Below, one piece after another: positions 14,543-36,336 of a stretch of DNA of 36,336 bases. Numbering within the stretch: the first letter of the stretch is position 1; each line of letters starts with the position of its first letter. The DNA comes from Candidatus Nanohaloarchaea archaeon. Its GTDB lineage: Archaea > EX4484-52 > GLR71. Position numbers and translations under genes: made by a program. Where the stretch lies: positions 1 through 36,336 of the forward strand of contig DAOVHT010000001.1 of the NCBI GenBank assembly GCA_030671745.1, read 5' to 3'. A model generated the notes under the pieces. The model was given only the letters and a program-made list of their open reading frames with translations, was not told the DNA's origin and searched no databases.

Positions 14543-14543
14543 C

Positions 14544-14931: not shown

Positions 14932-14933
14932 AT

Positions 14934-16804: not shown

Positions 16805-16826
16805 GTATATATTATTGCGTCCAAAC

Positions 16827-16834: not shown

Positions 16835-16836
16835 TT

Positions 16837-16891
16837 TAATGACATTGCAACGTCATTATTTCTGGGTTTTAATGACATCACAACGTCATAA
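16837..16891. promoter_or_regulatory. Two tandem copies of a 22-bp inverted repeat (operator-like) just upstream of the TATA box
   Basis: TAATGAC-ATTGCAAC-GTCATTA (16837-16858) and TAATGAC-ATCACAAC-GTCATAA (16870-16891). The arms are 7 bp, the spacers 8 nt, and the centre-to-centre distance is 33 bp. Confidence 0.5.
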
Positions 16892-16945
16892 CTTTTTGAA
16901 TTAAATGCTTAATCGTTATCGGGGCTCTTCCGCATCAACTCAATT

Positions 16946-17788: not shown

Positions 17789-17793
17789 ATCAA

Positions 17794-18654: not shown

Positions 18655-18861
18655 CCTCTTTGGATGATTTTCATTTTTCAGCTTATATGCCTGTCGGGAG
18701 AGAGCCGTGCCGGTATGCCAATAGAATCCACAATTGATGCACAAAATTGTTGTTTAAGCACTCATTTTGCGCTTAATTTAGATTTAGTGCGTTTATCAAC
18801 GAAACCTTTATAAACTCTGATAACTAATATATACTACTTACAAGTTACACAAATTATAAAT

Positions 18862-19902
18862 ATGGTGTTCAAAATGAATGCAGATGATATGATTTCGGTA
18901 TTGAAAGGCAAGATTAGTGAAATTGACCCAAGAAAAGCCTTTACAGGTGTTGCGCTAGGCACTACCTTATCTCTTGCAGGCGCAGCCCTTATCTATGGTG
19001 ACCTTGAACAGTTTAATGAATCTATAAAAAATACAATGAACGCGGGTGTTAGGTCTGCAAGTTTATATGTTCATGATATGATTTCGGATAATATTTATTC
19101 TATTGAATCTCTAAAAGCGATAGCGACAAATGTTGACAATGAAGTCCTTGCAGGCGCAGGTATGTTGAGTGCTGGTGCACTTTACCATACAATTAAAAAA
19201 AATGGTATTTCTGACACTGGCGCATCAATTTATCATGCAATAGTTGATTCTATTGAAACTCTTGGCATTGATAAAAAACGCGCAAAACGCGGTCTATTAT
19301 ATACTGGAATCCTTGCTGTAATAGGAACTTCAATGGCAACTTCTGGCTGTTTAGATTTCGGCGGCGATGACACAGTTGTTACAACAAGTACTGATAATAT
19401 TCCAACTCCTGAACCAATAGAACCAACTCCAGTTGAAACAGAAACGCAAGTTGAGACTAATATTATAGAACCTGTAGCAGAACAAGTTGAAACTCCATGG
19501 TATGTTGATCAATATGGTTTTGAAGATGCAGATGTTGGTATACATTCAACTTTATTTGATGATGTTTATGCAGTAAAAAGTTCAGCATATGGTGATGGGA
19601 ATTATAATCTTTATAGTATTGAAAATAGTGAATCTATTCTAAAACATCAAGAATTCACTCCATCAAACCTTCGCCTAGACCTCGATCTGTCATCCGACCA
19701 GTATCGCGCACTAAACGCCCAGTACGGCACCATGATTTCCGCGACAATGGAGACAATCGACCTCGACCGCGACGGCACCATGGACCAAGTCGCCATCCAC
19801 TATGTGGGAACCGGCGGGGATGAAGGAAAAGTGTTGGAGATTAAGACTGATTATCAAAACAGATGGCAGTTACGGGATTATTTGATAACTTATTTTCAAT
19901 AG
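18862..19902 (+). CDS. Membrane protein (346 aa), hypothetical, with a T/P/E-rich linker and a compositionally distinct C-terminal domain
   Basis: Three hydrophobic segments are present: FTGVALGTTLSLAGAALIYG, VLAGAGMLSAGALY and LLYTGILAVIGTSMATSGC. The linker is TPEPIEPTPVETETQVET. The last ~75 codons are much more GC-rich than the rest of the gene. Confidence 0.7.
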   Translation: MVFKMNADDMISVLKGKISEIDPRKAFTGVALGTTLSLAGAALIYGDLEQFNESIKNTMNAGVRSASLYVHDMISDNIYSIESLKAIATNVDNEVLAGAGMLSAGALYHTIKKNGISDTGASIYHAIVDSIETLGIDKKRAKRGLLYTGILAVIGTSMATSGCLDFGGDDTVVTTSTDNIPTPEPIEPTPVETETQVETNIIEPVAEQVETPWYVDQYGFEDADVGIHSTLFDDVYAVKSSAYGDGNYNLYSIENSESILKHQEFTPSNLRLDLDLSSDQYRALNAQYGTMISATMETIDLDRDGTMDQVAIHYVGTGGDEGKVLEIKTDYQNRWQLRDYLITYFQ

Positions 19903-19904
19903 AG

Positions 19905-20171
19905 TTAACAAATACAATTACAGTTTTTATAATATGGTAAATTACATTCTGTAACTGGGTCTTCTGCTCTACAACAACTCCAACACAACTGCTGGCACTC
20001 ACTCGCCCCACCAGCCCCCTCAATCTTCGTCCCGCCGATATCAACAAGATCAGCGCCAGAGCGCGTTATGAGTATCAGCATAATCGCCAGCGCAACAAGC
20101 AGCACGATAAGAATTACGATCGTGTTGATAGGCAATTCCATGCCCTTGCGCTTCTTAGAGAAAAGATTCAT
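19905..20171 (-). CDS. Small prepilin-like protein with an 8-Cys C-terminal module (C-x3-C-x2-CC family)
   Basis: The leader is MNLFSKKRKG|MELPINTIVILIVLLVALAIMLILI. The tail is CQQLCWSCCRAEDPVTECNLPYYKNCNCIC. A TATA (GATATAAACC, minus strand) at 20191-20200 is about 22-28 nt upstream of ATG 20171. Confidence 0.8.
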   Translation of the reverse strand: MNLFSKKRKGMELPINTIVILIVLLVALAIMLILITRSGADLVDIGGTKIEGAGGASECQQLCWSCCRAEDPVTECNLPYYKNCNCIC

Positions 20172-20220
20172 AACAATTATTATCGATTCAGGTTTATATC
20201 TGTTTTTGGTGTGATTACTT
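20131..20220 (-). repeat. Direct repeat copy 1: promoter plus the first ~13 codons of the pilin-like gene at 19905-20171
   Basis: 20161-20220 matches 20621-20680 at 57 of 60 positions by my count. 20131-20150 also matches 21845-21864 at 16 of 20 positions. Confidence 0.85.
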
Positions 20221-20471
20221 ATATACTCGTTTTCTGGTATCTATATTTATGACAACAACAAGAAGATTATTGTAATCAACTCTGTAAAGTATACGAAAAT
20301 CTCACACCCTGATTCTAAACACTTTCTCTTTTTGACCCATTATTCTTTTTGAATCATGTGGTATCGGGTCCTCTGCAAGTTTTTCAATGGATTCAAGAAT
20401 TCTCAGAGTCATATTCTTATCAAGTTTTTAAGTGATTTCTGGATTGGTTTATCTAAAAATATCTCAAACAT
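20215..20471 (-). pseudogene. relE: RelE/ParE-family toxin pseudogene (one frameshift plus one in-frame stop)
   Basis: The minus strand reads MFEIFLDKPIQKSLKNL, then needs a 1-nt insertion to continue as (D)KNMTLRILESIEKLAEDPIPHDSKRIMGQKEKVFRIRV*DFRILYRVDYNNLLVVVINIDTRKRVYK. The stop (TGA) replaces the Gly of the conserved RiRvGdyRiiY motif. It is below the track threshold because it is broken. Confidence 0.8.
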
Positions 20472-20473
20472 AT

Positions 20474-20587
20474 TCAAAGACCCAATTCTTTCTTAAACTC
20501 AGAAATAGATACAAGTTTACCTTCTTTTTCATTCTTGAAACTTTCATCTACAAGAACTTTATCTTTCTCGCTCAATATAGTATCCAT
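20474..20587 (-). CDS. Short (37 aa) antitoxin-like ORF immediately upstream of the relE remnant; possibly itself truncated
   Basis: MDTILSEKDKVLVDESFKNEKEGKLVSISEFKKELGL. Its stop TGA (20474-20476) lies 2 nt before the relE ATG (20471), which is the typical type II TA arrangement. Confidence 0.5.
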   Translation of the reverse strand: MDTILSEKDKVLVDESFKNEKEGKLVSISEFKKELGL

Positions 20588-20599
20588 GTCAATTATGGC

Positions 20600-20680
20600 A
20601 TACCCTTCTCGCTTCTTAGAAAAAGATTCATAACAATTATTATCAATTCAGGTTTATATCTGTTTTTGATATGATTACTT
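20600..20680 (-). repeat. Direct repeat copy 2: degenerate promoter plus frameshifted leader remnant (MNLFLRSEKGMP*)
   Basis: It is about 90% identical to 20140-20220 with two 1-nt indels. The TATA-containing part is retained. The remnant ORF stops after 12 codons. Confidence 0.85.
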
Positions 20681-20723
20681 CTTTTTTGATATAAAATTAT
20701 GCTTTGAGTTTGTATTGCTGAAA

Positions 20724-20755
20724 GGTGTCTACAAAAATATATAAATGTAGACACC
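20724..20755. promoter_or_regulatory. 32-bp palindromic element A (10-bp arms around an AT-rich TATA-like spacer), 6 nt upstream of the Fic ATG
   Basis: GGTGTCTACA-aaaatatataaa-TGTAGACACC. Confidence 0.6.
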
Positions 20756-20761
20756 CATTAT

Positions 20762-21670
20762 ATGTTTATGTTTATAGAAATAAGAAAACAAGGAAAAAAG
20801 AAAAAATATTATCTTGTGCATACATATAGATCTGCTGGAAAAGTCAAAAGAATATCCAAGTATCTTGGTTCTGATATAGATGATAAGGAGTTGCAGAAAC
20901 TAAAAAGTATTGCCGAAAAAAGAATTATTGAGGATTTAAAAGAAAGAAATATTTTAGAATTTGAATTAAATGATGACGAAATAAAGTATTATACTAACTA
21001 TGACTCTAAGATAAAGATAAAACATTTGCAAGGTATTGATTGGACTGATTTTAAAAAACGTTTTACATACGATACAAATGCAATAGAAGGTTCTACAGTT
21101 ACCTTGATTGATGCAGAAGAACTGTTGGGACAAAATAAAAAACCAATAAATAATGACGAGCTTGAAACAGTAAGTGTCTCTGAATCTGTAGATTTCATTA
21201 GAAACACTCAAAAAAAAATGTCAATTGAATTGATTAAAGAAATCCATAACATATGTTTTAATAAAACCAAGCCATTCGCTGGCAAGATAAGGGATGTACC
21301 AGTTGTTATAAAAGATTCTTATGGGAATATTATCCATGAAGGCGCTCCAGTTGATTTGATTGACAAATTACTGACAGAATTATGTGTTTGGTATGAAAAA
21401 CATATAGATATATATCCTCCATTACTTATTTCAGCATTAGTCCACAATCAATTTGAAAACATACATCCGTTTCAGGATGGTAATGGTCGGGTTGGAAGAT
21501 TGTTACTCAATTATGTGCTGATAAAACATAATTATCCACCTATAAACATATTATTGGAAGATCGTGATATCTATTATGAATCTCTAAAGCATTTTGATGA
21601 TAATGGTAATATTGTACCTACTTTAAAATTTTTGATAAAATTATATAAAAAACAATACAATATTTCATAA
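20762..21670 (+). CDS. Fic/DOC family protein (probable AMPylase or related NMP-transferase)
   Basis: The canonical Fic motif HPFQDGNGRVGR (HxFx[DE]GNGRxxR) is present. Length is 302 aa. A second ATG at 20768 is an alternative start. Confidence 0.9.
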   Translation: MFMFIEIRKQGKKKKYYLVHTYRSAGKVKRISKYLGSDIDDKELQKLKSIAEKRIIEDLKERNILEFELNDDEIKYYTNYDSKIKIKHLQGIDWTDFKKRFTYDTNAIEGSTVTLIDAEELLGQNKKPINNDELETVSVSESVDFIRNTQKKMSIELIKEIHNICFNKTKPFAGKIRDVPVVIKDSYGNIIHEGAPVDLIDKLLTELCVWYEKHIDIYPPLLISALVHNQFENIHPFQDGNGRVGRLLLNYVLIKHNYPPINILLEDRDIYYESLKHFDDNGNIVPTLKFLIKLYKKQYNIS

Positions 21671-21952: not shown

Positions 21953-23431
21953 TCAATAACTCTTAGCGACATAGACAGTCTCTTTTGCAGGTTTTCCGCA
22001 CACCACGCATCTGGCGAACTTCTTGTCCTCTTTATCAACTTTCTTGCCGCGCACTTCAGCTCCGGTCTTGTCCTTGATAGTGTCTGCGCAAGCTTCGCCA
22101 TCAAGTTCCATGCTACAGAATCCGCACCGGACCATGTTACTGTCAGCCACCGCCTTCTCAAGTTCAGCCATGGATTCACAATCGATAAGCCTCTTATCAA
22201 AATTCTCAGCCTGTGCATCCTTCAACTGTTTAGTGAATGTTTTAGAGATATCAATAACTTTTCCGACAACCTCATCCGCCTTGACAAAATCTTTCTTGCC
22301 GTCATGCCTTGTGACTACCACTGCCTGACCTTTCTCGACATCTTTAGGTCCTACCTCAATCCGCACAGGAACACCTTTCATCTCCCACTCACTGAATTTC
22401 TCGCCCGGACTCTTATTATCGCGGACATCAACCTTGACTGAATATCCGGAACCAGAAAGTGATGTCTTGATCCGTTCACATTCGGAAAGTACCATATCGC
22501 GAGTCTTATCAAACAGTATGGGCACGATAACGACCTGCAACGGTGCAAGTTCAAACGGTAACACAAGCCCTGTATCATCGCCATGTATGGCGATCATAGC
22601 ACCGTATATCCGACTTATTGCCGGACCGTAACAGGTGATGTAACCATATTTTTTAGAACCGTCCTTGTCAACAAAACTGACATCGAAAGGTTCTGAGAAG
22701 TTGGTGCCTAAAAGATGTGTTGATGGCAACTGGATGACCTTGCCTGACGCGGTCAGTGCATCAGCGGCATGTGTCTTGACGGCTCCCGGGAACATATCCC
22801 ATTTAGGTCTCTCAAAGAATATTATGGGTATCGCAAACTCGTCGCCTATCATCTCATGCGTGATCTTCATGTCTTCCTTAATCTGTGCCTCAGCCTCAGC
22901 AAGTGTGGCAAAAACATTGTGCGCCTCAATCCAATGGAACTCACGACCCCTGAAGAACGGTCTTGTCATCTTGGTCTCATATCTCCACACAGACCCAGAC
23001 TGGTATCTCTTGAATGGCAGGTCATTGTAACTCTGTATCCAGAGACTGTACATCTTATACAGTGCAGTCTCGCTTGTCGGACGCAGTGCACGCCTTTCAT
23101 CAAACTTTTTCTTGCCGTCCCCTGCCTCAGTCACCCAGAAAACTTCAGGGGTGAATCCCTCGACATGTTTGGCTTCAAGATGAAAATTGCTTTCAGGTAT
23201 AAGTGATGGCATGACAACTGGTAGGTGCCCGTACGATTCTAACTTTTTCTCATATGTTGCAAACATCTTCTTGATGCTCATGACAGCCCACGGCATATAG
23301 CACACGAAACCTTTGATATTATACCTTAAATCCGCAAGTTCAGCCTTCTGCACAAGCTCTCCGTACCAACCGGAGAAATCCTCATCTTTGGATACGGTTA
23401 TACCTTTTTTCTTAATACCTTTACCAGCCAT
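21953..23431 (-). CDS. proS: Proline--tRNA ligase, archaeal/eukaryote-type class II with a C-terminal Cys-containing domain
   Basis: Signature segments are FSGWYGELVQKAELADLRY, RPTSETALY and FFRGREFHWIEAHN. The C-terminal domain carries CGFC...CVVCG and ends in ...AKSY, as in archaeal-type ProRS. Confidence 0.96.
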   Translation of the reverse strand: MAGKGIKKKGITVSKDEDFSGWYGELVQKAELADLRYNIKGFVCYMPWAVMSIKKMFATYEKKLESYGHLPVVMPSLIPESNFHLEAKHVEGFTPEVFWVTEAGDGKKKFDERRALRPTSETALYKMYSLWIQSYNDLPFKRYQSGSVWRYETKMTRPFFRGREFHWIEAHNVFATLAEAEAQIKEDMKITHEMIGDEFAIPIIFFERPKWDMFPGAVKTHAADALTASGKVIQLPSTHLLGTNFSEPFDVSFVDKDGSKKYGYITCYGPAISRIYGAMIAIHGDDTGLVLPFELAPLQVVIVPILFDKTRDMVLSECERIKTSLSGSGYSVKVDVRDNKSPGEKFSEWEMKGVPVRIEVGPKDVEKGQAVVVTRHDGKKDFVKADEVVGKVIDISKTFTKQLKDAQAENFDKRLIDCESMAELEKAVADSNMVRCGFCSMELDGEACADTIKDKTGAEVRGKKVDKEDKKFARCVVCGKPAKETVYVAKSY

Positions 23432-23527
23432 AACAACTATTGTCTGTGATACTTATTTAAGTTTTTTCTAATCTCAACGAAAATCAATCAAATAACTATA
23501 TATCACTATCATAATAAATTATGACTT

Positions 23528-26500
23528 ATGCGACTCTTAGCAACCCTGATAGCATTTGCACTGATCCTTTCAGTCCCATTCATATCAGAAATATCCGCAA
23601 CCGCAACATCATCTGAAAACACACTTAAAATAGTAGCACAGCAAGACGACAAAGTCAGAGTCATAATAACTTTCAAAGACACGCCAAAGACTGCAAAAGA
23701 TAGCATATTCAATACCCTAGGCATCCCGCAACAAGACCCGAAAGAGAAGATAAAGGACAAGATAAAAACTGATGGACAACTGAAGCACGAATTCCAGACA
23801 ACAGACAGTGTTTCTGCAACGATTACTCAAGAACTGCTTGACGAACTGAACTCAGACCCGTCGATTGCATACATAGAACAAGATAGACCGGTGCAAGCAT
23901 TCCTATCTCAGAGCGTACCGTTAATAAACGCTGATCAAGCCTGGCAACAGCAGATGCAGGACACAGGTCTCACCGGCAAAGGGACGACCGTCTGTGTGAT
24001 AGATACTGGGATTGACTACACACATCAGGATCTTGGAAACTGCACAGTATCAACATTTAATTTAAATGGCGTGAATGAAAGCCATATTTTGGAATCTGCA
24101 CACAATTACACTAATAATTTTGATCATACCTGGTCTATAACTAAACCTGGATACACAGACATTGCAGTCTATTTCAGAAACATCAGTCTGGAATACAAAG
24201 GCGAGGTTGATGGTTCAGACACAGGTGATAGGATAATTATCTATGATGGTGATATGGTTGAGATTGCAGTATATCATGGAATTGATGGTGTAATTGAAGA
24301 CCTGTGGACACCATATTCTGAGGGTGACACAATCTACATACGGTTGGTGACTGATTCCGGGTTTAGGGATTACGGTTTTTATATTGATTCTGTCTTGAAT
24401 GGCACCACAGACACTACTTATGACTGGAGCAACTGTTCAAAGACAATAGGTGGTTGGGATTTCGTCAATGGTGATGGTGACCCGATAGATGATGATTTTC
24501 ACGGCACCCATGTTGCAGGGATAATCGCTGCAGATGGAACAGTGACTGGTGTCGCACCGGACACAGGACTGATCGCAGTAAAAACTCTGGATGCAGGTGG
24601 TACTGGTTGGTTTTCAGATACATTGTTAGGTATTGAATATTGTATAAATAATTCTGATAGATATAACATATCAGTTATCAGCATGAGTCTTGGGGCTATA
24701 GATACATATTATGATTCTTATTGTGATGGTGACAGTCCATCGATGTCAAATGCAATAAACACTGCAGTTGCAAAAAACATCTCGGTCATAATTGCAAGTG
24801 GGAATAATCATCCGCCAACAGGCATCAGTTATCCTGCCTGCATAGAGAATGCAACCCGTGTAGGCTCGACATCAAAATCAGATGTCATTGAAAATTACAC
24901 TCAACGAAGTGTTAATTTCAAAGATCTGCTTTTGGCTCCCGGTGGTAATATATATTCTACAATGCCTGCGGATAACTACGCTACTAAATCAGGAACTTCA
25001 ATGGCGACACCGCACGTTTCAGGTGCCACCGCCATATTAGTCCAGGCCTATCAAGACCGGTTCGGGAAAAGACCGACCCCTGCATACATAGAATATGTCC
25101 TGAACAAGACAGGAATTCTGATCTATGACAGCCAGACCGGGCTGAACTTCTCGCGCATTGACGTCCTAGCGGCAGTATTGTACATCAACACACCACCGAA
25201 CATTACAGACATCTACAACAACATAACTGAAGACGGTTCACAAGAAATAACCATCAATGAGACCGACTCAATACTCTTCAACCTGACAGTGTTGGCGCCA
25301 GTCAATTACACCTGGAAAAAGAACGGCACGACAGTGGGCGCAAACCAGTCTAACTGGACCTTTGACACAACTTATGATGATGCAGGATTCTGGATAATTG
25401 AAGCAATAGTAAATAATGACAATGGCACAAGAACCAAAGAGTGGAATGTGACAATAGATGATGTCAATCGCGCACCGACCATCACATCAATCTCAAACAT
25501 AACGATGGACCTCCAGGATCAGATAACCATCAACATCTCAGCAAACATATCAGACCCTGACAGCGACACATTGACGATAACAACCGATGACCCCGGAAAC
25601 ATAACTGTAGAGAATCACACATTAGTATTCCATTACACCGAAAATGTCACAGACAAGCCCGTCACGATAACTGTCAACGACTCAGACCTGACAACCAACA
25701 TTACAATCTACATAAACATCACAGATGAATTACTCAACATCACAGACACTTACAACAACATAACCGGCGACAACAGTTCAACCCTTACGATCAATGAGAC
25801 CGATTCAGTATTCTTCAACATATCAACAGATGTCCCGGTGAATTATACTTGGTATATTAATGATACAAACATCGGAAATAATTTCAACAATTATACATTA
25901 ACGACCGGTTTTGATGACGCCGGAACAAAGAACATTTCAGTCAACGTTTCAGACAATGAAAGCCATAACACTTTTAGGTGGACTGTCACAATCCTGAACA
26001 AGAACCGCCAACCAATAATCACAACAGTATCAAACATATCAATGGAACTCCAGAATCAGACAACAATCAACATCTCAGGCAACATATCAGACCCTGACAA
26101 TGACAATTTAACGATAACGACTGACGACCAAGAAAACATAACAATAGAAAACCACACATTGATATTCAATTACACAGAGACTGTAACGGACAAACCCGTC
26201 ACGATAACTGTCAACGACTCAGACCTGACAACCAACATTACAATCTACATAAACATCACGGATACGACCGCACCGACAATAACAATAGATTCACCCACAA
26301 ACAAGACCTACAACACGACCGATATCAACATATCGATCAATGCAGATGAACCATTGGACTGGTGCGCATACTCCTTAAACGCCCAACCAAACATAACGAT
26401 GAACTGCACAGAAAATAGTAACATGACGGCCATTGAAAATCTCAACAACCTGACTCTCTGGGCGAACGACACATCCGGAAATCTGAACCGCACAGAGGTC

Positions 26501-27544
26501 TTTTTCACAGTTGACACAATCTCCCCAAATATAACAATTACAGCATTAAACTACACGACAGACGATTATCTTTACATAAACCTTTCAGTTTCAGAAACAC
26601 CAGACACCTGCATATTGAATTGGCAGGATGAAAACATCACGATGAACAGGACCGGAACAAAATGTGACATCAACAAGACTTCAATTTCTCCAGGTATCTA
26701 CAATTACACAATCTATGTCAATGACACGGTGGGCAACACAGGTTCAATCACCGACTTACAGTCAGAGATCTATTACTGTTTTGTTTCAGTCACCGACTGG
26801 ACATCCTGCGTCTCAAGCTCAAGGACGAGAATTCACACATACCGAGATTGCACAACTTACACAGAGACTGAGAGCTGTCACTCAAGCAGCGGTGGCGGTT
26901 CGTCATCATTTTCATTTGTACCGCTCCCTGTTATATCTAATGACACATTGAACGAAACATTGACAAATATTACAGATGACCCATTAAATGACACTGAAAC
27001 AGATTGGGATCAGAATGATACAACACTGATAACGAACAGAACACAAGACGATATTCTTGATTCTGATGATACTAAAGAAACAGATGGAAATAAAGTGGGC
27101 ACTCACACGATTTCCGATGATGGATACAAAGATTTAGAAGATATAGACGATGGTTTCTTGGGGATAAGATTGTTAGATGATATTCTTTTTGAAAACAGTT
27201 TGATTTCAAAAATAAAAGATAGATTGGGTATTGATTCCTCAGAAGATAACACTTTTAATTCTATTGTGTTGCTGTTTACAATAATTGTTATCTTTGCTAT
27301 AATTGGTATTTCTTATAACTTCAATAGATCTTACAAGAGAAAACACAAACAAAAACAGACATTGGATAATGGTACTGTCTTAAATACAGATGATGAGAGC
27401 AATCAACCCTCGCCAATCTCACCCAAACAACAAGAGATTGTATCCGACCTCTCTCAGAAAACCTATTTAAACAACACCGGACAAAATAATAATGATAATA
27501 GTCCTAAGGATGTATATTTAGATGGTGTCAAGTACAAAGAATAG
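23528..27544 (+). CDS. Large membrane-anchored subtilisin-like protease (S8) with a propeptide, a CUB-like insert, tandem repeats and a cytoplasmic tail
   Basis: The signal peptide is [24 protein letters not shown]. An I9-like propeptide (VRVIITFKD) follows. Catalytic motifs are [10 protein letters not shown] (Asp), [10 protein letters not shown] (His) and [12 protein letters not shown] (Ser). About 169 aa separate Asp and His. The C-terminal TM segment is [23 protein letters not shown], followed by a tail of about 90 aa. Confidence 0.93.
25202..26275 (+). repeat. Two tandem 537-nt (179-codon) repeat units inside the protease gene
   Basis: Unit 1 starts with ITDIYNNIT (25202) and unit 2 with ITDTYNNIT (25739). 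A 65-nt tract is perfectly identical between 25658-25722 and 26195-26259. Confidence 0.9.
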
Positions 27545-28520
27545 AAAAGGTAATAGTGCAGTAATCAATACTATACTTGTACTTGTCATGCTCTTAGTTG
27601 TTGCAGCGATACTGATATCTTTCATATCAGGTCCTGCCAAAAAACTTGACATCTTTACAACTGAAAAAAATGATGAGACCAGTACGACTTTAGATGTCGG
27701 CACACTTGCATTGATGGACACGAATTTTGTCAATTTTGACACGACCAAAGCAAAGACTGAAATGATAAAATTAATAAATATAAGTAGTACTTCTTCAATT
27801 ATAGATTGTGGTGCAACTACCCTAACCTCAGAACAGGAAAATTACTGCACAAACATAACAGTCTCAATATCACCCGCACCTCCCAAATACTCAACAACTC
27901 CCGAAGGAATACGATTCAAGATATCCTATATCAATAAGACCTTATTTGACGATATTGAAGGTTACGTCAACCTGACTTTCGTTGATGTCTACGAATTCAA
28001 TCAGGTGTTCACATCTAAATTAGGAGATTTTAATAATTGCACTGATCCGATAACAGAATCCTGTTTCAATGAATCAACCACAAAACCTATGACAAACCTG
28101 ACATTGATTTCTATGTTCAACGACGAGATATTTGTCCGAATGCCTTTCTATTACGATAATTTAGTGTCTAGTGGTTTTTCTTATGAGGATAACTGTGTTG
28201 CATATGCAAATTACTCAAACCTAACAGCACAGAATACAAATATTCAGATAGAGGTTGATGCTGAAAGTCCCGCACCATCATACAACTTTACGATTGTCCA
28301 CATGGAAAAGTCACACAAGAGGGAGTATCCAATTTATTGTAATGTCTCAATAAATAGGGGTATTGCCCATGACTTTCCAGTTCAGGTAGTTTCAGGCGAT
28401 TACGACCTATTCAGGATTTATGGCTGGAACTCAACAAGTACGGATTGCATTATGGTAAAAGACGATGTCCTTGTAAAAAAAGATGATACCACACCATTAA
28501 AGATAAAATTTAAATGTTAA
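27522..28520 (+). CDS. Prepilin-like-leader secreted protein (332 aa), sequon-rich
   Basis: The leader is [10 protein letters not shown]|[25 protein letters not shown]. The ATG lies 23 nt inside the protease 3' end. An SD-like TAAGGA is at 27505-27510. Confidence 0.8.
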
Positions 28521-28553
28521 ATATAAAAGAAAATGATTGCAAGGTAAATGATT

Positions 28554-28811
28554 ATGCGACGAATTGGACGGATGGATATGGCAATGGCAGTGACAGTAAT
28601 CTTAGCCATAGTGCTTATTGCAATCATTGGAAAGATGGTATTTGATGTCTTTGACAGTGGTGAGAATGAAGCCGGCGGTATGTTTGACTCATTAAAATGC
28701 CAACCAAAAATAGCCCAGGCCTGCATGGATGGCGGAATTTCAGAAACAGATAATGTTGATGGCACTTGCATAACTGAAGCAAACAGAGCAACAATCTGTG
28801 ACGATGTATAA
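28554..28811 (+). CDS. Small pilin-like protein (atypical leader) with 4 Cys
   Basis: MRRIG|RMDMAMAVTVILAIVLIAIIGKMVF. AAGGT at 28541-28545 lies 8 nt upstream of ATG 28554 (the track start 28548 is also ATG). Confidence 0.65.
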   Translation: MRRIGRMDMAMAVTVILAIVLIAIIGKMVFDVFDSGENEAGGMFDSLKCQPKIAQACMDGGISETDNVDGTCITEANRATICDDV

Positions 28812-28812
28812 A

Positions 28813-29136
28813 ATGGTGTTGATTATGATAAAAAACAATAACCGAAAAGGTCAGATGTCTATGGGTACAGTAGTTGCCTTAGTGATTGCATTTATAGTGA
28901 TATTGGTTATTGTGGCGATTGCAACTGATTTCGGTGAGAGGACAAAAGACACCGCACCATTCGACGATGCAAAAGTAAAAGCGGAAGACGCGATGAATGA
29001 TAAGAGATGTGCAATGGTCTGCACTGCCTCATGCATTGACAAGGCATATGTGATTGATAGTGACTGTGCAGATTATGTGCGTGACTGTTGTGATTGCGAC
29101 AGCGTAGATGATATAACTGATGGGTGTGATTCTTGA
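28813..29136 (+). CDS. Small prepilin-like protein with an 8-Cys C-terminal module (variant pattern)
   Basis: ..IKNNNRKG|QMSMGTVVALVIAFIVILVIVAIA. The tail is CAMVCTASCIDKAYVIDSDCADYVRDCCDCDSVDDITDGC. The ATG at 28813 lies 2 nt after the upstream stop (the track start 28798 is GTG; ATG 28825 is also possible). Confidence 0.75.
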   Translation: MVLIMIKNNNRKGQMSMGTVVALVIAFIVILVIVAIATDFGERTKDTAPFDDAKVKAEDAMNDKRCAMVCTASCIDKAYVIDSDCADYVRDCCDCDSVDDITDGCDS

Positions 29137-29168
29137 TTATTGATCTAATACTTTCTATATTCTCAAGC

Positions 29169-29384
29169 ATGAATTCATTAGTATTATTTAAAAACCGCAA
29201 AGGTGAAGTTGACGCCTTGATGATCGCTCTTGCTGGTGTATTGATTCTCGCAATATTAGCTCTAATTTTTGTCATGACGGTGGGTACTTCTCTTGACGGC
29301 GGAGTAGAGATGATCTGTAAATATAAAGCAGACGCTGTTGGTAAATCCGGAGAAGTAATAGCTGATATATTGGGGGTCTGTTGA
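29169..29384 (+). CDS. Mini prepilin-like protein (71 aa; about 59 aa after the predicted cleavage)
   Basis: The ATG at 29169 gives MNSLVLFKNRKG|EVDALMIALAGVLILAILALIFVM. The track start 29133 is a TTG overlapping the upstream stop. Confidence 0.65.
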   Translation: MNSLVLFKNRKGEVDALMIALAGVLILAILALIFVMTVGTSLDGGVEMICKYKADAVGKSGEVIADILGVC

Positions 29385-29386
29385 AC

Positions 29387-30691
29387 ATGAACATGCCTCA
29401 GACCTTGATGATGATGGCTTTTGGAGTGTTGATTGCCGGTTTCCTTATATTTATGATGGCAAAGACCATAAATGTCGGTGTTGAAGTCAAGATGAGCACC
29501 CGTGTTGAACACATGGCTGACGACCTCGCAAATGCAATCCAGCACATGTCCTCATCGACGATAGATTATGCAACTGAAGTGTATGATGTCGGTATCTGGG
29601 GCACTTCGATAAATATTGTGGATGATGATAGTACTGATGATCATTATGTCACCGTAAGACATAGAGACTTCGAATTTTCTCAAGCATTCCATATTGCAAA
29701 AGACATAACTGTTCAAGGTACAATCTCTGACGCAAAAGTTTTATGCCTTGAGAAATCATTCGATTCAACAGATAAGAAAATGATAAAGGTTTCAAATTTT
29801 GATGATTCTCCATGCAACACTGCCTACAAGGAACTAGACTTGAGATATGATTTTGATTGGGGTTTTGATGATAAGCAGATAGTTCAAGGCGAACTGAACA
29901 GTGTTCCGGATGGTGTTGATTTAGTAACTGAGTTGCCGATTGGAAAAATCAAAGGTGCATCATTTCATAATTTTGATATGACCTCTGATGACACAAAAAA
30001 ATATTTTTGGATACGACCTGGTGAGCAGACGAAATATTTCATAAAATTTGATCTATACATACCATATGATCCGATATCTGCAACACAAAATAATTCAGTA
30101 AACATAACGCTTGACGTATCACCATTGAATCCTTTATATGTCGATGTTGCTTATCAGAACATGGCAAAGTATCCAGATTGTGGTGCTGTATCAAGGGATT
30201 ACAGTTGCATAATCCGTAGTGAACATGATATAACTCTGATATATAGGAATGGTTGGAGACCTAACATAACCATCATAAACACACAAGCAACCAAGGATTT
30301 TTATGACTGGGGTTTTGTGGGTAGAGAATCCTTCTATAATGAGACCTTGACAGATTACCCAAACAACACAGTCCAGATGGTACAATTCCATAATTTCATA
30401 ACACCTGAAAACGAATATGTAAACATAACTCCAGTGGACATGGGTCGCAATTATTTCAGTTTCAATGTGCGCGTCCCAGATGATAACAATGCCGTCACAC
30501 ACAACAATGTCTCTATTACATTAGACATTGACCCGTTCTATTCACAGAATGTAGATCTGAAAAATGGTGCAAAGACAATGCCTGAATGTTATACTGGCGA
30601 GAAACCATGTTTCATAAGGATAGGGTCTAGCGTAATCCTTGATCTTGAACCCGGTGATTACGCATTTATAATTGAAGATTCAAAATATTGA
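29387..30691 (+). CDS. Signal-anchored secreted protein (434 aa) with an internal ~150-aa duplication
   Basis: MNMPQTLMMMAFGVLIAGFLIFMMAK. The two repeats share the pattern DWGF...FHNF...N[VS][NS]ITLD[VI].P...C...C[IF]IR. The track start 29381 is a TTG overlapping the upstream TGA. Confidence 0.75.
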   Translation: MNMPQTLMMMAFGVLIAGFLIFMMAKTINVGVEVKMSTRVEHMADDLANAIQHMSSSTIDYATEVYDVGIWGTSINIVDDDSTDDHYVTVRHRDFEFSQAFHIAKDITVQGTISDAKVLCLEKSFDSTDKKMIKVSNFDDSPCNTAYKELDLRYDFDWGFDDKQIVQGELNSVPDGVDLVTELPIGKIKGASFHNFDMTSDDTKKYFWIRPGEQTKYFIKFDLYIPYDPISATQNNSVNITLDVSPLNPLYVDVAYQNMAKYPDCGAVSRDYSCIIRSEHDITLIYRNGWRPNITIINTQATKDFYDWGFVGRESFYNETLTDYPNNTVQMVQFHNFITPENEYVNITPVDMGRNYFSFNVRVPDDNNAVTHNNVSITLDIDPFYSQNVDLKNGAKTMPECYTGEKPCFIRIGSSVILDLEPGDYAFIIEDSKY

Positions 30692-30702
30692 CAAGGAGAT
30701 TA

Positions 30703-31266
30703 ATGATTATGTCCCTAACAGCATCCATTTCAAAAAAGAAAAAGAAAGGTCTTCTATTACCTGTATTCTTCCAAAAGGTAATGATGATAGGTCTTGTGGT
30801 CGGTGTCATGATGTGGATGATTTTTTCTACAATTAATTCTGAGGAAGTATCAGTCATAATGCGCCAGGAACGAAACGATGTAGAATTCTGGCATCAGATA
30901 TTAAAGTCTGACATATTCCGCGCAGAATCAGAAACAAGCACGACCACCACACAAACTGATTACAAAATGTATTTTGATGAAAGTAAATTAGATACTGCTA
31001 GAAGTAGTACAGGAGGTTCGACAGCATTACCTGGGGATATATCTTGTAATATTCCTCTAAATTTATCAAATTGCATCAATTTTTATCCAAGTAAATATTA
31101 TATAAAAATAAAAGTAGGTGGGGATAATTGGCTTTTCACAAATAATGCAACATTATCATCTGCTTTTGACAACTATGATTACAAAGAGGTAATTGGTGTC
31201 TTAACTCCCTCAAATCCAAACCCTACTATTGGCACAATATACTTTAAGACTGAATTATACGAATGA
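30703..31266 (+). CDS. Prepilin-like-leader protein (187 aa)
   Basis: MIMSLTASISKKKKKG|LLLPVFFQKVMMIGLVVGVMMWMIF. The SD-like AAGGAG is at 30693-30698. The track start 30688 is a TTG overlapping the upstream stop. Confidence 0.75.
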   Translation: MIMSLTASISKKKKKGLLLPVFFQKVMMIGLVVGVMMWMIFSTINSEEVSVIMRQERNDVEFWHQILKSDIFRAESETSTTTTQTDYKMYFDESKLDTARSSTGGSTALPGDISCNIPLNLSNCINFYPSKYYIKIKVGGDNWLFTNNATLSSAFDNYDYKEVIGVLTPSNPNPTIGTIYFKTELYE

Positions 31267-32030
31267 TTATTATGAACTTTATATTTAACAGATATAAACA
31301 GAACAGGATATTCAAAAGAAAAGGTTTTGTACAGCACTGGTTCGTGCTTATAATGTCTTTTCTGTTAGTGATAGCTATAATTATTTTAGTAACAATTTTT
31401 AATATAAATGTAACTTCAACTGTTGTTACAGGTAATCTTAATATGCAGTATTCAACAGACGCAGGACGAGAGATCTATGCACTTCTTTCGGCAGGTTGTC
31501 CTGCAGTCGGCGACCCTTATACTGATTATAGTGTTTCAGAACTCATAAGTGTGTATGTCAGCGGTGACTTAACAGTCAAAGAATCAATAGATACTGATCT
31601 TAGAGATTGCATAGCTTCATCTCTTGCAACAATCGCAGAAGTCAATGAAGGAGTCGATAAAACTGGAGACCCTATTCCACATTATATGTACTTCTATGTG
31701 ACTTATGGTAATAACAAATATATTGAAAGTAGGCAACCAAGCATGGTATATGACCCGGGTTTACACACTTTAATGCCTTGGAACTCTGAATTTATATCAA
31801 CAACAACTGGATTAGATTTTAATACTACTATTTTGGGTGGTAAAACACCTGCCTCTTTACCAGTAGATCCTCGTTATTTCTCAAGCACGATGAATGATAG
31901 GTACTCCATACAGATACCATTATCTGATTCCGGCAATATGCAACACAGTTCGGCGACCGCAGTCTTAGAGGAATGGAGTGATGAGTCCTGGACAACACTG
32001 ACACAGGCACAACAGGAGGAGAGTGCATGA
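31263..32030 (+). CDS. Prepilin-like-leader protein (255 aa)
   Basis: ..NRIFKRKG|FVQHWFVLIMSFLLVIAIIILVTIF. An ATGA overlap joins it to the upstream gene. Confidence 0.75.
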   Translation: MIIMNFIFNRYKQNRIFKRKGFVQHWFVLIMSFLLVIAIIILVTIFNINVTSTVVTGNLNMQYSTDAGREIYALLSAGCPAVGDPYTDYSVSELISVYVSGDLTVKESIDTDLRDCIASSLATIAEVNEGVDKTGDPIPHYMYFYVTYGNNKYIESRQPSMVYDPGLHTLMPWNSEFISTTTGLDFNTTILGGKTPASLPVDPRYFSSTMNDRYSIQIPLSDSGNMQHSSATAVLEEWSDESWTTLTQAQQEESA

Positions 32031-35000
32031 GGATAATATCTAAAACAAGAACAAAAGGCGTTTCAGGAATCGAGATGCTTATTCCCATTTTCTTGTTGAT
32101 GTTCTCATTGCTTGTAATATTTGCAGGTATTGAATGGGGTGTCAATACACTGGTGCTGATGGATGAAGAGAAGCAGGTCACCCAGATGGATACCGAACTC
32201 TTGAGCGTCACCGACCTTTACATAACTCCATCATTGAAATACGCAATGCAAGAAGTCACAAGAGATCTAGCGCTGCATGGTGGGTTGTCTTCCGAGATAT
32301 TGGATAATCACAAATTATTTGTTGATGCTATGATGTCTGATTCAGCCAAAGATAATCTAAAGGATGATATAGTTTCAGATTTCAACAACGGTGATCTTGA
32401 TTTCCCATCAATCACCAACCCACCGATGAAAGTTGAAGGGAACATTCTTTACTGGTCATATTATGATAAGATAAGTAAAAAGAATCAAGAGACAATACCT
32501 TACGAGTATGATTTTATAGGTTCAATAAACCCATATAACTTATGCGGTACTTGTAGCCTTGAATGGTCTCCACCCTATACCTATTTGATAACTGATATCA
32601 AGGGAACTGTAAACAGATATGATGTAGATAACGGGAATTATATCCTTTCTGAACAGTACACAGGACCCACAATAATTTCTGGAGATACGCTGATAAAGCT
32701 TAATATGTCCAAAAGTACAGAGTCTGCTAAAGTTGAAGGAGTATATAATATCCGTTCCTATTTTGAACCGTTATTCCCGAGCGTATCATATCCTGGTGAC
32801 GCACTTGCACAAAGGACAGTATTCCCACGGTTTACAGATGTCATGCTGAGCGACAGGTTGAACAGTTACAGGTCAGATTACGGAGATTCAAAGACAGACA
32901 TAGGATCCACATTATCTCTCGGCACCTGGAACGCATTCTTTGTACCTGTACTGATGGAATTGGATAAGACTCTCGCATTCTATGGTGGCAACCGTCTTGT
33001 TGAGAGCACATCTTCAATTGAGATGGAAAATGATGACCCCGTAAAATCAGAATTAGACAATAGATATTGGAGATTATATGATATTGCAACATTATTTATG
33101 GATAATGTCACAGATGATGATTTCTTGGACGACCCATTGACGATGAATGCATATTATTCAGAAGAATATAATGGTTATGAAATATTTCGTGATAAAAGTC
33201 CAAAGACCTGTAGTGATGAATGGAGCATTTCTTGTGATGGTACCACAAATAATATCTTGACTACTCCGTCATGCACGTCATCAACATCAAGCACAGATGA
33301 ATTATATATCAAAGAATTGACAATAGATTCGCATGAATATGAGTTAAATGAGATAATAAATGTGGAACTTTTTGTTGAATGCATTTATAATGAATATTTC
33401 AATTGGACAATTGCTTATTATGATGGTGGCATTGGTTGGGGTTATAATAAGACCGGTACTGAAAAATGTCCATCTAATTATGGTGGCAGTATAAATATTT
33501 CAGAACAATTGGCTATGGAATCTACATATAGTGGTATTCATCTGATAAGAGCAAGTGTTGGAAATGATTCCACTGATATCTTGGGTAGTACTTGCATGTC
33601 TGCAGACAATGATGATGTTACTTTTACGACATTGGGTACTTCGAGTTATATGTATGCGGAGTCTGTTAATGATACCTGTTTTGATGGCGATAAGAATTGC
33701 ATTTTCCAAAAAGCGTGTAATGATAAATATCAAGGGACTCCTCCACAATTAACACCTAAAGATCCGTCTGACAAATTCACGACATTAGAAGCAAAAGATG
33801 GCAGCTATGAAAGTATACCAATCATTTTTGATGTTGAAGATAATTTCAATTACAATTATTATCAAAAATTTAAAGATGTTGGTCTTGTTCCATTCATATA
33901 TGACGAAATGTCAAAAGAAAAGCTTGCAAAGAATATATCCGCTGCTGATGAGGTCTCTCTTACTTTCAATTATGGTTCTGATACAACAATTGCCTGCAGT
34001 GAACGTGAGGATGTAATAGAAAAGATTACAGTATTTATGATTTATAATCCTACTTTGGTACCTGCTATAACTCTTGATACTTTTGCAATTAATCCTCTAA
34101 AACTAACTGCTGATACTTCTCGGGTCGAAATCGGTTCAATAAATCCAGAATTAGGTAGCACAGACAGTTCTGACTTTTACAAGAAACAGAAAATAATTCT
34201 GAATAAGGCGTTGATTGCAGAAGTAATAAATAAGACAGGTAATATCAAGTTTACAATTCAGGCAGATACGGTTGCAGATGGTGAAAACATACCTGCACAG
34301 ATGTATACCGACAGAAATTCAAGGATTTATGCATACGATATCTTGATGAATGGTGCATACCCATCAATGACAATTGACATAAATCCCGATTATATGACAG
34401 ATAGCCTTGAACCATCTATGAATTATGGTTTCAAGAACGCAAAAGGAATAGCGGTTGACAAAGATGGCAACATATATGTCATAAATTCAGATGACCACAG
34501 GTTGTATCGATACAATAGTTTCGGAACCTTCAGTGGCTGGATGGACCTTCTTGACTTAGATCCACGAGGTGTGGATATAGACACAAGCAATGGCAACATC
34601 TACATAAGTTATCATGATGGAAGAAACATAACAAGGTACGACAATTTCTTCGATTCGCGCGATTTGGCACAGAATGCAGGCATACCACCAACACCGTTCC
34701 AGATGTGTGGCCGTTTCGTCAGTGCAAATCCTACAGATGTTGCATATTACAAAGGTACTGTCTTCACGATTTTTGAAGATGATAAATTGGATTACTGCAA
34801 ATCTTCAAGTGACAGCTGGTATGTGGGTTCATTACCTGATGTCGCAGGAACAGACAAGATAATGGCAATATCTGTCGATCAGGCAGAGGACCGTCTTTAT
34901 GCAAAAATAATTAAACCGAACCCAACCGGGACAGGTTTTGTTTATACATATAATGTATATGGCATGAGTGCTTTTGCAGAGAACCCTATTACATCAAATA

Positions 35001-36336
35001 TTAATCTTATTTCTGAAACTGCGATTCCTATTCCTTTTGAATTAAGATACTTTGACATATACACTCCTCAACAAGGTGGTGATGCCCAGGCATATTTTGT
35101 GCGGACAACCTCTCAAAAATCAGAAGCAATCGCGCTCCTTAACGATTTCAGGTTCAACATAGATTTCGGCGACACTTTTAAGATTGAAGTAGAATCAATG
35201 GGTAATGTAAAAGGATTGACTGATAGAATCGAATATTATGAAGATGGTTGCGGGTCTGTCACAGAAAAAAATAATTGTGAAACTTTATGGGGGACATATG
35301 CTTTAAATGAATATTTCAAAGAGATATCATATTTTAATGCAAGTGATGATGTTGATTGCAATGAACTTAATCAAGGTTTGGGTGTTGTTGACAATGAAAC
35401 GATAAGCAAGATAAAATCATTATTAGGAATTCCACAGACCTCAAATATCTCCTGTACTAAGACTATTGATTCTGCAAATATGGCGAATCCTTTTATTGGT
35501 AGTTATATGGAATCAAAGATACAGGATAAGATAATAGGACCAAGGATAATCAATGAAGTCAGAGGATTAAATGATATCTACAATTCAGAAGGCATATATA
35601 TTGATGTTGATTATGCCATTAATTCTGATTTTGGTACTTCCGGTTGGGATGCAGATGGGTTCTGGAAAGAAGAAGACTCTTTTGTATCTGGATCAGTATC
35701 TACAGGTGTAGCTTGTGGCTGTGCTGGACGTTCAGATGTATGCGGTGATGGTAATGGTGCAAGTACATATATAAAAAAGACAGAGAGTTATTGTGATTAT
35801 AATTATGGTGCAATATACTCTTTGAATGTCACAATCGAAGACCGGAACACAGACATTTGGGATCCTGTTCTACACGATATGACTTCATTGAAATTCAAGT
35901 ACGGCTTTGAATGGTCTGCATTGGATGATGACCAAAATTATACTTATATCGCAGATGAAAGAAATATGGATGCATATTTGGCAGGAGATGAGGCATATTG
36001 TGCACCTAAATACACACCTGATGTCTGCCATACTCAAGATAGTATTGCAAATTATGATCACTATATGAATGATCCTGATGAGTGTCCTGGAAAAGAAAGT
36101 TCAGATGTGACGTACAATGTTCTCAATTGTCAAGATGATGATTATGGATATTGTTATGGTCCATTCCATACTCACTGTCGCAGTTGCGGTTTAGGTTGTA
36201 CAAGTTGCTATTCGCATCGTCATAAATCTTGTTATAATTATGGATGTTCACCAAAATATACTTATGCAACTACTAATTATACTACGTATACTACTTGTTC
36301 TGGCCCACAGATCCCACCAAGACCTCCAACCCCCCC
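32027..36336 (+). CDS. Giant prepilin-like-leader surface protein, 3'-partial (more than 1436 codons, no stop before the window end); absent from the supplied ORF track
   Basis: ATG 32027 overlaps the upstream TGA (gcATGA). I read this frame codon by codon to nt 36334 without a stop. The leader is MRIISKTRTKG|VSGIEMLIPIFLLMFSLLVIFAG, with Glu at +5. NHL-type repeats and a Cys-rich distal region are present. All other-frame track ORFs across this 4.3-kb span are shorter than 90 aa. Confidence 0.88.
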   Translation, partial: MRIISKTRTKGVSGIEMLIPIFLLMFSLLVIFAGIEWGVNTLVLMDEEKQVTQMDTELLSVTDLYITPSLKYAMQEVTRDLALHGGLSSEILDNHKLFVDAMMSDSAKDNLKDDIVSDFNNGDLDFPSITNPPMKVEGNILYWSYYDKISKKNQETIPYEYDFIGSINPYNLCGTCSLEWSPPYTYLITDIKGTVNRYDVDNGNYILSEQYTGPTIISGDTLIKLNMSKSTESAKVEGVYNIRSYFEPLFPSVSYPGDALAQRTVFPRFTDVMLSDRLNSYRSDYGDSKTDIGSTLSLGTWNAFFVPVLMELDKTLAFYGGNRLVESTSSIEMENDDPVKSELDNRYWRLYDIATLFMDNVTDDDFLDDPLTMNAYYSEEYNGYEIFRDKSPKTCSDEWSISCDGTTNNILTTPSCTSSTSSTDELYIKELTIDSHEYELNEIINVELFVECIYNEYFNWTIAYYDGGIGWGYNKTGTEKCPSNYGGSINISEQLAMESTYSGIHLIRASVGNDSTDILGSTCMSADNDDVTFTTLGTSSYMYAESVNDTCFDGDKNCIFQKACNDKYQGTPPQLTPKDPSDKFTTLEAKDGSYESIPIIFDVEDNFNYNYYQKFKDVGLVPFIYDEMSKEKLAKNISAADEVSLTFNYGSDTTIACSEREDVIEKITVFMIYNPTLVPAITLDTFAINPLKLTADTSRVEIGSINPELGSTDSSDFYKKQKIILNKALIAEVINKTGNIKFTIQADTVADGENIPAQMYTDRNSRIYAYDILMNGAYPSMTIDINPDYMTDSLEPSMNYGFKNAKGIAVDKDGNIYVINSDDHRLYRYNSFGTFSGWMDLLDLDPRGVDIDTSNGNIYISYHDGRNITRYDNFFDSRDLAQNAGIPPTPFQMCGRFVSANPTDVAYYKGTVFTIFEDDKLDYCKSSSDSWYVGSLPDVAGTDKIMAISVDQAEDRLYAKIIKPNPTGTGFVYTYNVYGMSAFAENPITSNINLISETAIPIPFELRYFDIYTPQQGGDAQAYFVRTTSQKSEAIALLNDFRFNIDFGDTFKIEVESMGNVKGLTDRIEYYEDGCGSVTEKNNCETLWGTYALNEYFKEISYFNASDDVDCNELNQGLGVVDNETISKIKSLLGIPQTSNISCTKTIDSANMANPFIGSYMESKIQDKIIGPRIINEVRGLNDIYNSEGIYIDVDYAINSDFGTSGWDADGFWKEEDSFVSGSVSTGVACGCAGRSDVCGDGNGASTYIKKTESYCDYNYGAIYSLNVTIEDRNTDIWDPVLHDMTSLKFKYGFEWSALDDDQNYTYIADERNMDAYLAGDEAYCAPKYTPDVCHTQDSIANYDHYMNDPDECPGKESSDVTYNVLNCQDDDYGYCYGPFHTHCRSCGLGCTSCYSHRHKSCYNYGCSPKYTYATTNYTTYTTCSGPQIPPRPPTP
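34445..34965 (+). other. NHL-type beta-propeller repeat region within the giant ORF
   Basis: GIAVDKDGNIYVINSDDHRLYRYNSFG and PRGVDIDTSNGNIYISYHDGRNITRYDNF match the NHL repeat consensus (G.a.D..GniyVaD..n.ri..f). Two further degenerate blades follow. Confidence 0.6.

Follow-up and report, generated by a model that had tools for sequence, protein, structure and literature searches.

The sequence considered here (the window) is a contig of 36,336 nucleotides (nt) from a Candidatus Nanohaloarchaea archaeon (GenBank assembly GCA_030671745.1, contig DAOVHT010000001.1, positions 1 to 36,336 of the forward strand). At its right-hand end, a cluster of mostly pilin-like genes closes with one very large open reading frame (ORF), called the giant gene below: from the ATG at 32027, in frame +1 from that codon, the forward strand stays open for 1436 codons plus 2 nt, up to the last base at 36336. 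The remaining five frames have between 65 and 164 stops over the same interval, and at the local base composition (stop probability 0.073 per codon) an open frame of this length has a chance probability of ~1e-47. The ORF list made for the window has no long forward-strand entry after 32030, because ORFs running off an end are left unlisted by that program; the initial annotation had offered this explanation, and both the translation and the listing rule bear it out.

The start codon is also that of the NCBI gene call in a near-identical contig, L006, from an independent NCBI assembly (GCA_023143955.1, “Candidatus Aenigmarchaeota archaeon”), which matches window positions 22027-34846 (12.8 kb) at 99.78% identity with 0 gaps. 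Support from L006 extends over the first ~940 codons; positions 34847-36336 rest on the window and on homology. Homologues from six other assemblies (41-75% identity) are colinear with the window protein through residue 1436. Because of the gap-free match and the colinear homologues, a frameshift or chimeric join is very unlikely, and the search for assembly errors found none. The giant ORF is a genuine gene of a DPANN archaeon. Just upstream of it, a GGAGG and an ATGA overlap with the TGA of the preceding gene (coordinates of all features are in Table 1) indicate translational coupling of the two, the GGAGG being Shine-Dalgarno-like. As separate observations, L006 ends inside the giant gene at about codon 946, its last ~20 nt diverging, and the window ends inside it at codon 1436, where proline codons form a run of C; examination of the gene revealed no repeat explaining the breaks, and no internal tandem repeats.

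The full-length protein probably has ~1520-1530 amino acids (aa), with ~90 C-terminal codons beyond the window, judging from its relatives. The proline-rich stretch at the window end, already pointed out in the initial annotation, is confirmed as GPQIPPRPPTP, and homologues P0003 and P0004 share the motif (GPQxPPxPPxP) and run on for ~90 residues, made up of an acidic run and then a ~70-residue domain ending in Cys. Four of the seven homologues (P0003, P0004, P0005, P0007) have a tail past the window’s end point; P0001 and P0006 terminate at or close to its last residues. Attempts to extend the contig toward the true 3' end found no continuation: an exact-match query of public assemblies with the neighbouring 255-aa protein returned no record, the last 41 bases of the window had 0 matches among JGI metagenome contigs, and L006 is shorter.

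The seven homologues (1424-1589 aa, 41-75% identity) come from a collection of 5.8 billion proteins. The known family has ~10 sequences, all from DPANN metagenome-assembled genomes labelled Aenigmarchaeota, Nanohaloarchaea or Nanobdellati. Relatives of the GCA_023143955.1 genome include the assemblies GCA_019429125.1, GCA_054921135.1 and GCA_030594885.1. A hidden Markov model (HMM) search with residues 1-1150 against 1.84 billion representatives matched, outside the propeller blades described below, only P0002, P0003, P0007 and a fragment, P0008, among the matches listed, which are filled by generic NHL proteins and take in N-terminal relatives up to E ~1e-18. Two profile searches, one with residues 1-780 and the other with the 386 residues at the C-terminus, yielded nothing new except a 242-aa fragment, and scans of JGI metagenomes and IMG/VR found no relatives. 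An archaeal-type prolyl-tRNA synthetase (ProRS) gene adjoins the cluster and supports an archaeal origin; together with the source names of homologues and loci, it indicates that the source of the giant gene is a DPANN archaeon. A viral or mobile-element origin was rejected: there are no relatives on viral contigs, and the chromosomal place beside ProRS is kept in several assemblies.

The product opens with a basic leader, MRIISKTRTKG, followed by VSGIE; the consensus across relatives is K-[G/A] before the predicted cleavage site and xxGxE after it. In the alignment used for leader and conservation (the window protein and its seven homologues), K10, G14 and E16 are invariant in 8 of 8 sequences; seven have G at position 11, and the eighth has A. 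E16 (nt 32072-32074) would be at +5 of the mature N-terminus. L18, P20, F22, L23 and F26 of the following helix are also invariant, and residues 17-35 (Kyte-Doolittle 2.76) are the sole hydrophobic segment in all eight sequences; a hydrophobicity scan found a C-terminal membrane anchor in none of the full-length relatives. By published criteria (PMC4371748), an archaeal class III signal carries a charged residue at -2 and G, A or S at -1; the leader agrees with this pattern, as it does with an uncharged H-domain of ~20 residues. The N-terminus fits an archaeal class III (prepilin-type) leader, with cleavage predicted after G11. The class III-like leader with Glu at +5 read in the initial annotation is upheld by this conservation, but not its likening to bacterial type IV pilins: the organism is archaeal, and the proper comparison is with archaeal class III signals and PibD/FlaK-type peptidases. 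The Gly at +3 presumably departs from the strictest FlaFind-style pattern.

Behind the helix, the protein is for the most part an orphan. The NHL domain is the sole family match in searches of Pfam, NCBIfam and the PDB sequences, leaving ~85% without one. The best-conserved stretches, aa 51-100 and 251-300, lie in the N-terminal region. The central region has ten invariant cysteines (C395, 403, 416, 452, 481, 523, 551, 558, 564 and 657), a probable beta-sandwich at aa 427-512 (nt 33305-33562), whose strands are modelled at a predicted local distance difference test (pLDDT) of 55-75, and, in the alignment, a clade-specific 21-residue insertion near aa 680-700. For the distal Cys-rich region, a profile search found no homologues outside the clade.

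The NHL-type repeats proposed from the sequence are well supported. Pfam NHL matches aa 802-826 at 27.2 bits, against a cut-off of 20; a profile search of the PDB gives the Pizza designer propellers at 1.9e-13 and PknD at 6e-7. A blade HMM built for the family detects two blades only, at aa 797-880. Foldseek, run with the moderate-confidence model strands at 805-996, aligns 200-250 columns to six-bladed NHL propellers at a template modelling (TM) score of ~0.45, and the propeller is the only part of the giant’s models that it recovered. The best sequence and fold matches are to NHL domains of the binding type (the PknD sensor, Brat, TRIM71 and teneurin).

In composition, the 1436 residues include 136 Asp, 101 Tyr and 97 Asn. 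The richness in these residues that the initial annotation assigned to one long region is real, but it is spread over the whole protein and forms no discrete low-complexity tract. The Cys-dense distal part holds up, with 20 of the 34 cysteines after residue 1000; ~26 of the 34 are invariant among the relatives. The isoelectric point (pI) of the giant is 4.3, compared with 7.1-7.7 for the cytoplasmic tRNA synthetases. These features are consistent with a disulfide-bonded extracellular protein. A reading of the Asp-rich composition as that of a salt-in halophile was rejected, since acidity is confined to the exported proteins, the cytoplasmic enzymes having pI 7.1-7.7.

The cluster diverges from ProRS and consists of an S8 subtilase gene, seven genes of ~332, 85, 105, 83, 434, 185 and 252 aa (g2 to g8), and then the giant, which is its final and longest gene. 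Six of these seven (g2-g5, g7 and g8) have a conserved [R/K]-[G/A] and hydrophobic helix in all syntenic loci. Five consecutive gene junctions are 4-nt overlaps, and six assemblies share the gene order and content, even where the identity of the giant falls to 41%. In four related loci (L001, L002, L004 and L005) a ~98-aa gene lies downstream, with a textbook archaeal pilin N-terminus (SRKG, then MSMALTLVVTAVVLIV) and six Cys. These four loci also have a methyltransferase gene after it. Among the proteins of the operon, the giant alone has an invariant Glu at +5; the presumed minor pilins, like the relatives’ ~98-aa pilin, are without it. In bacterial systems, Glu5 is typically missing from the tip-most minor pilin, so that the pattern seen here is the reverse of the bacterial one.

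As to other genes of the cluster, the S8 subtilase accompanies it in four assemblies but is missing from the otherwise syntenic locus L008. It was therefore rejected as an obligatory partner and is better regarded as an optional one. It has very many N-x-S/T sequons and an internal duplication (25481-25726 vs 26018-26263, ~85% identity). Between the giant and the small pilin, two loci (L004:5322-7049 and L008:14680-17393) have inserted genes for FmdE-domain and DsbD_2+FmdE membrane proteins, which may handle thiols and disulfides for these Cys-rich exported proteins.

How specific the leaders are can be judged from a scan of the 96 ORF segments of at least 60 aa in the window, under a rule of a charged -2, G, A or S at -1, and an uncharged hydrophobic core. 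Thirteen were positive: five in the giant’s operon, seven elsewhere, and one an internal-start artefact in the transmembrane anchor of the cluster's S8 protease. Two further operon members, with the motif visible by eye, were missed, so that there are ~14 ORFs with class III-type leaders in 36 kb. This protease itself starts with a Sec-type signal of the ordinary kind, which makes the K-G leaders a specific feature rather than a compositional habit. By this sequence rule, pilin-type leaders are specific (they never occur in the many spurious ORFs), yet abundant in the genome and not limited to small proteins. Such leaders were initially called unusual on proteins as large as the giant; this is true in comparison with bacterial modular pilins (860 aa in the most extreme case surveyed, PMC8179133), but not within the window, where proteins of 863 and 395 aa also have them.

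Table 1. Features of the giant gene, its cluster and other loci in the window. A slash marks a predicted cleavage site.
Feature	Position (nt)	Strand	Basis
Giant ORF, 3'-truncated by window end	32027-36336	+	Open frame; 7 homologues; L006 match to 34846
Shine-Dalgarno-like GGAGG (32015-32019) and start/stop overlap ATGA (32027-32030)	32015-32030	+	Sequence; junction table
Basic leader MRIISKTRTKG (aa 1-11), predicted prepilin-peptidase site after G11	32027-32059	+	Alignment; rule-based scan positive
Hydrophobic N-terminal helix of predicted mature protein (aa 12-37, VSGIEMLIPIFLLMFSLLVIFAGIEW)	32060-32137	+	Alignment; hydrophobicity; model helix
Conserved orphan N-terminal region (aa 38-394)	32138-33208	+	Conservation profile; no family or homologue outside clade
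Central beta-rich orphan region (aa 395-796), 10 invariant Cys	33209-34414	+	Alignment; model strands
NHL-type beta-propeller: two canonical blades, aa 797-880 (nt 34415-34666), then degenerate blades to ~aa 1000	34415-35026	+	
Cys-rich distal region (aa 1075-1425), 16 Cys invariant across relatives, including CRSCGLGCTSCYSHRHKSCYNYGC	35249-36301	+	Alignment
Pro-rich linker GPQIPPRPPTP at window end	36302-36336	+	Translation; DNA ends in C-run
S8 subtilase, 1338 aa, Sec-type signal, cadherin/Ig-like repeats, C-terminal transmembrane anchor	23528-27544	+	Domain search; hydrophobicity; synteny
g2, 332 aa, pilin-like, NRKG leader	27522-28520	+	Leader conserved in loci; scan positive
g3, ~85 aa, pilin-like, RIG/RMDMAMAVTVILAIV	28548-28811	+	Motif kept in 5 loci; missed by stricter scan rule
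g4, ~103-112 aa, pilin-like, 8 Cys, NRKG/QMSMGTVVALVIAF	28798-29136	+	Loci comparison; scan
g5, 83 aa, pilin-like, NRKG/EVDALMIALAGVLIL	29133-29384	+	Loci comparison; scan
g6, ~434 aa, N-terminal hydrophobic helix without K/R-G motif	29381-30691	+	Loci comparison; hydrophobicity
g7, ~185 aa, pilin-like, KKKKG/LLLPVFFQKVMMIGLVVGV	30688-31266	+	Loci comparison; hydrophobicity
g8, ~252 aa, pilin-like, KRKG/FVQHWFVLIMSFLLVIA	31263-32030	+	Loci comparison; scan
Second S8 protease, 26 Cys, at window start	4-1287		
863-aa protein, MKNKKG/TLPLVANLIIGLVILGAG, also with C-terminal hydrophobic region	9174-11765	-	Scan
395-aa class III-leader protein	11806-12993	-	Scan
197-aa protein, weaker leader case	13210-13803	-	Scan
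Small pilin-like ORFs (three)	14006-14284, 14288-14542, 15223-15522	+	Scan
Small pilin-like ORF	19905-20171	-	Scan
PDC-S01-type AAA_14/DUF4143 ATPase	15536-16804	-	
Two tandem BRO-N / PDC-S13 proteins	16946-17797, 17794-18744	-	
Fic/SoFic protein	20762-21670	+	

Several known systems invite comparison. In bacterial modular type IV pilins (Streptococcus sanguinis PilB with a vWA module and PilC with a lectin module; CofB/TcpB), grafted modules are presented at pilus tips, and the most extreme case surveyed has 860 aa (PMC8179133). The giant shares with these a class III leader, a helix with Glu at +5, grafted modules and co-encoded minor pilins, and from its bulk a tip presentation would be predicted for it too. 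It differs in being archaeal, in its ~1500 aa, and in its NHL propeller and orphan Cys-rich modules. The models of the giant do not demonstrate a pilin-fold module, and scanning it with Pfam and pilin HMMs gave no match to the bacterial N-methylation/pilin signature.

A second comparison is with the PilY1/PilC tip adhesins, which act with a minor-pilin priming complex, and with the archaeal “PilY-like” DUF2341 proteins of type four filament (TFF) systems 1 and 4A; archaeal type IV filament loci with large adhesin-like proteins have already been described (PMC4858521; preprint 10.64898/2026.04.22.720090). There as here, a large beta-propeller protein, proposed as assembly primer and tip adhesin, is found among minor pilin-like genes. 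PilY1, however, is a non-pilin with an ordinary signal peptide, whereas the giant itself bears a pilin-type leader; its propeller is of NHL rather than PilY1/IPR008707 type, and a Pfam scan (E <= 1) found neither DUF2341 nor Neisseria_PilC in it.

Among archaeal non-classical class III proteins are the sugar-binding proteins of the Sulfolobales bindosome and the “relatively large pilins” of the Haloferax PilB4/C4 locus (PMC4371748; preprint 10.64898/2026.04.22.720090). The resemblance is in the K/R-G/A leader (with PibD-type processing in those proteins) and the large extracellular body on a pilin-like helix; in contrast to these proteins, the giant is much larger and sits inside an operon of pilin-like genes. 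Pfam and NCBIfam searches found no substrate-binding-protein domain in it, and there is no ABC transporter in the neighbourhood, in the window or in the related loci.

Lastly, DPANN “dark matter” islands are contiguous unannotatable genes whose sole feature is a pilin-type signal, and have been read as fast-evolving pilins (Makarova, Wolf & Koonin 2019, PMC6393860). The giant’s operon is likewise a run of contiguous unannotatable pilin-signal genes, and the giant fits this already described category, notable in its size (~1500 aa) and narrow distribution. Published dark-matter pilins adjoin FlaI/TadC components, whereas this operon has no linked ones, and its family (~10 members, with a 1500-aa NHL member) was not found described in PMC6393860. 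Since the sequence-signature tests failed, the giant is classed outside the modular-pilin, PilY1 and bindosome families; it would nonetheless work like a modular pilin or PilY1-type adhesin without being a member of those families.

The interpretation that we hold to be moderately probable is that the giant is an adhesin of the modular pilin type, displayed on a type IV pilus-like filament and probably located at its tip, with the propeller and distal modules serving for binding. From the architecture, conservation and context observed, we infer that the leader would be removed by the cell’s class III signal peptidase (PibD/FlaK type), and that the hydrophobic helix would then let the protein be taken up by a type IV pilus-like assembly machine, whose genes would lie in another part of the genome. 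The giant and the minor pilin-like proteins of the operon would form a priming or tip complex, beneath which the small pilin would polymerise, so that the propeller and the disulfide-bonded distal modules would be held away from the cell, where they could bind a ligand. DPANN archaea are largely episymbionts, and for this reason the most plausible ligand would be the host cell surface. A DsbD_2-domain membrane protein adjacent to the giant in two relatives is counted in favour of the extracellular Cys-rich body. The tip adhesin or filament-tethered binder suggested in the initial annotation is thereby backed by the pilin-like operon, the 4-nt overlaps, the synteny in six assemblies and the downstream pilin, and stands as a proposal.

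Several observations weigh against this interpretation. Curated Pfam pilin and archaellin HMMs do not match the giant’s N-terminus even at E <= 10, nor do NCBIfam pilin models; in the operon as a whole, no leader is recognised by either set above cut-off, the nearest being a weak match of g2 to the NCBIfam UpsA pilin N-terminus (E = 0.0025, below cut-off). Divergent DPANN pilins are known to escape curated models (PMC6393860). The AlphaFold2 models are also of little help. Domain and structure analysis recovered the NHL propeller and no other domain, and both models (6 sequences) are poor, with a mean pLDDT of ~42 and an unusable distal region; a helix is modelled at 18-46, within residues 1-423, where pLDDT stays under 50, and the models do not show a pilin fold behind the helix. 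NHL propellers may be enzymes as well as binders. The leader alone is no proof of incorporation into a filament, because class III leaders also serve non-filament proteins, and many proteins in this window; in archaea these signals are also found on non-filament surface proteins, for example the bindosome binding proteins (preprint 10.64898/2026.04.22.720090). Finally, the 36-kb window holds no gene for an assembly ATPase, platform protein or prepilin peptidase, and none lies within 10 kb in six related loci. This is weak negative evidence, because in archaea the genes for pilins and for their machinery are often not linked (PMC4371748).

Carried further, the giant could be the terminal pilus subunit, primed by the six minor pilin-like proteins, and the host-recognition tip device of this small DPANN clade. 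This narrower version is put forward tentatively. If it is right, a ~1500-aa terminal subunit would be by far the largest pilin-type subunit known, and the orphan Cys-rich domains and NHL propeller would decide which host cell the symbiont captures.

Alternatively, the class III leader could conceivably be a route to a surface coat. As in the bindosome, the leader would be processed, and the helix would hold the giant in the membrane or in a short pseudopilus-like stub; no long pilus would form, and the giant with the other operon products would make up an outer coat or contact zone, with no tip adhesin. The occurrence of ~14 class III-type proteins in 36 kb, with the 863-aa and 395-aa proteins in a separate cluster, suggests some such general display route. 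Archaeal class III signals do occur on non-pilin binding proteins (preprint 10.64898/2026.04.22.720090), and machinery genes are unlinked both in the window and in the related loci. However, the synteny and translational coupling with six pilin-like genes, and the canonical short pilin nearby, give the locus the likeness of a minor-pilin/adhesin module, and bindosome members adjoin ABC transporters and have the substrate-binding-protein domain that was undetected here; on this evidence, coat display seems rather unlikely.

It is improbable that the giant is an uncleaved signal-anchor (type II) membrane protein, in which the K-G would be incidental and which would be a generic surface protein unrelated to type IV filaments. 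The failure of pilin HMMs to match, and of the model to demonstrate a pilin fold, would be expected in this case, and the Gly at +3 counts in its favour as well. However, the basic -2 and the G/A at -1 are invariant across orthologues that are 41-100% identical, the same motif is present in six neighbouring genes and the downstream pilin at every syntenic locus, and the control scan found it uncommon by chance. An invariant Glu at +5 within the membrane helix would also be hard to account for in a plain anchor.

The propeller might also be catalytic, making the giant a secreted or surface enzyme that modifies or degrades host envelope polymers, possibly with the adjacent S8 protease. Virginiamycin B lyase and hydrazine synthase are indeed among the weaker Foldseek matches, and the subtilase is linked in most loci; but the top matches in sequence and fold are binding-type NHL domains, the protease is absent in L008, and neither Pfam nor NCBIfam detected a catalytic family, so that we give this reading very little credence. 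An assembly or sequencing artefact, by which a chimeric join or hidden frameshift would have lengthened the frame, is essentially refuted: both assemblies do break inside the gene and 34847-36336 is in the window assembly alone, but the chance of such an open frame, the match without gaps to an independent assembly and the colinear relatives all argue against it.

A pilin-type tip adhesin would be of interest because little is known of how DPANN archaea find and attach to hosts, and annotation fails for most of their surface proteins; the locus described here is a concrete and conserved candidate. Its confirmation would carry the principle of modular pilins over from bacteria into archaea, extend the known size range of pilin-type subunits roughly twofold, and give a molecular handle on the clade's host specificity. 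More generally, ORF tracks that drop frames crossing a sequence end hide large surface-protein genes just where assemblies tend to break.

A second set of class III-leader genes in the window, at 9174-15522 and 19905-20171, is unrelated in sequence to the giant’s operon and has no Pfam or PADLOC match. Its four small pilin-like ORFs are paralogues of 84-99 aa, each with exactly 8 Cys in a C-terminal part of ~40 residues; by BLASTP, they resemble the relatives’ ~98-aa pilin by the N-terminus only. From sequence, they are candidates for major filament subunits. One of them, at 15223, also has Glu at +5 (KKG, then ELTIE). The neighbouring interval 15536-21670 is a low-GC (guanine plus cytosine, 30-38%) block with the character of a defence island.

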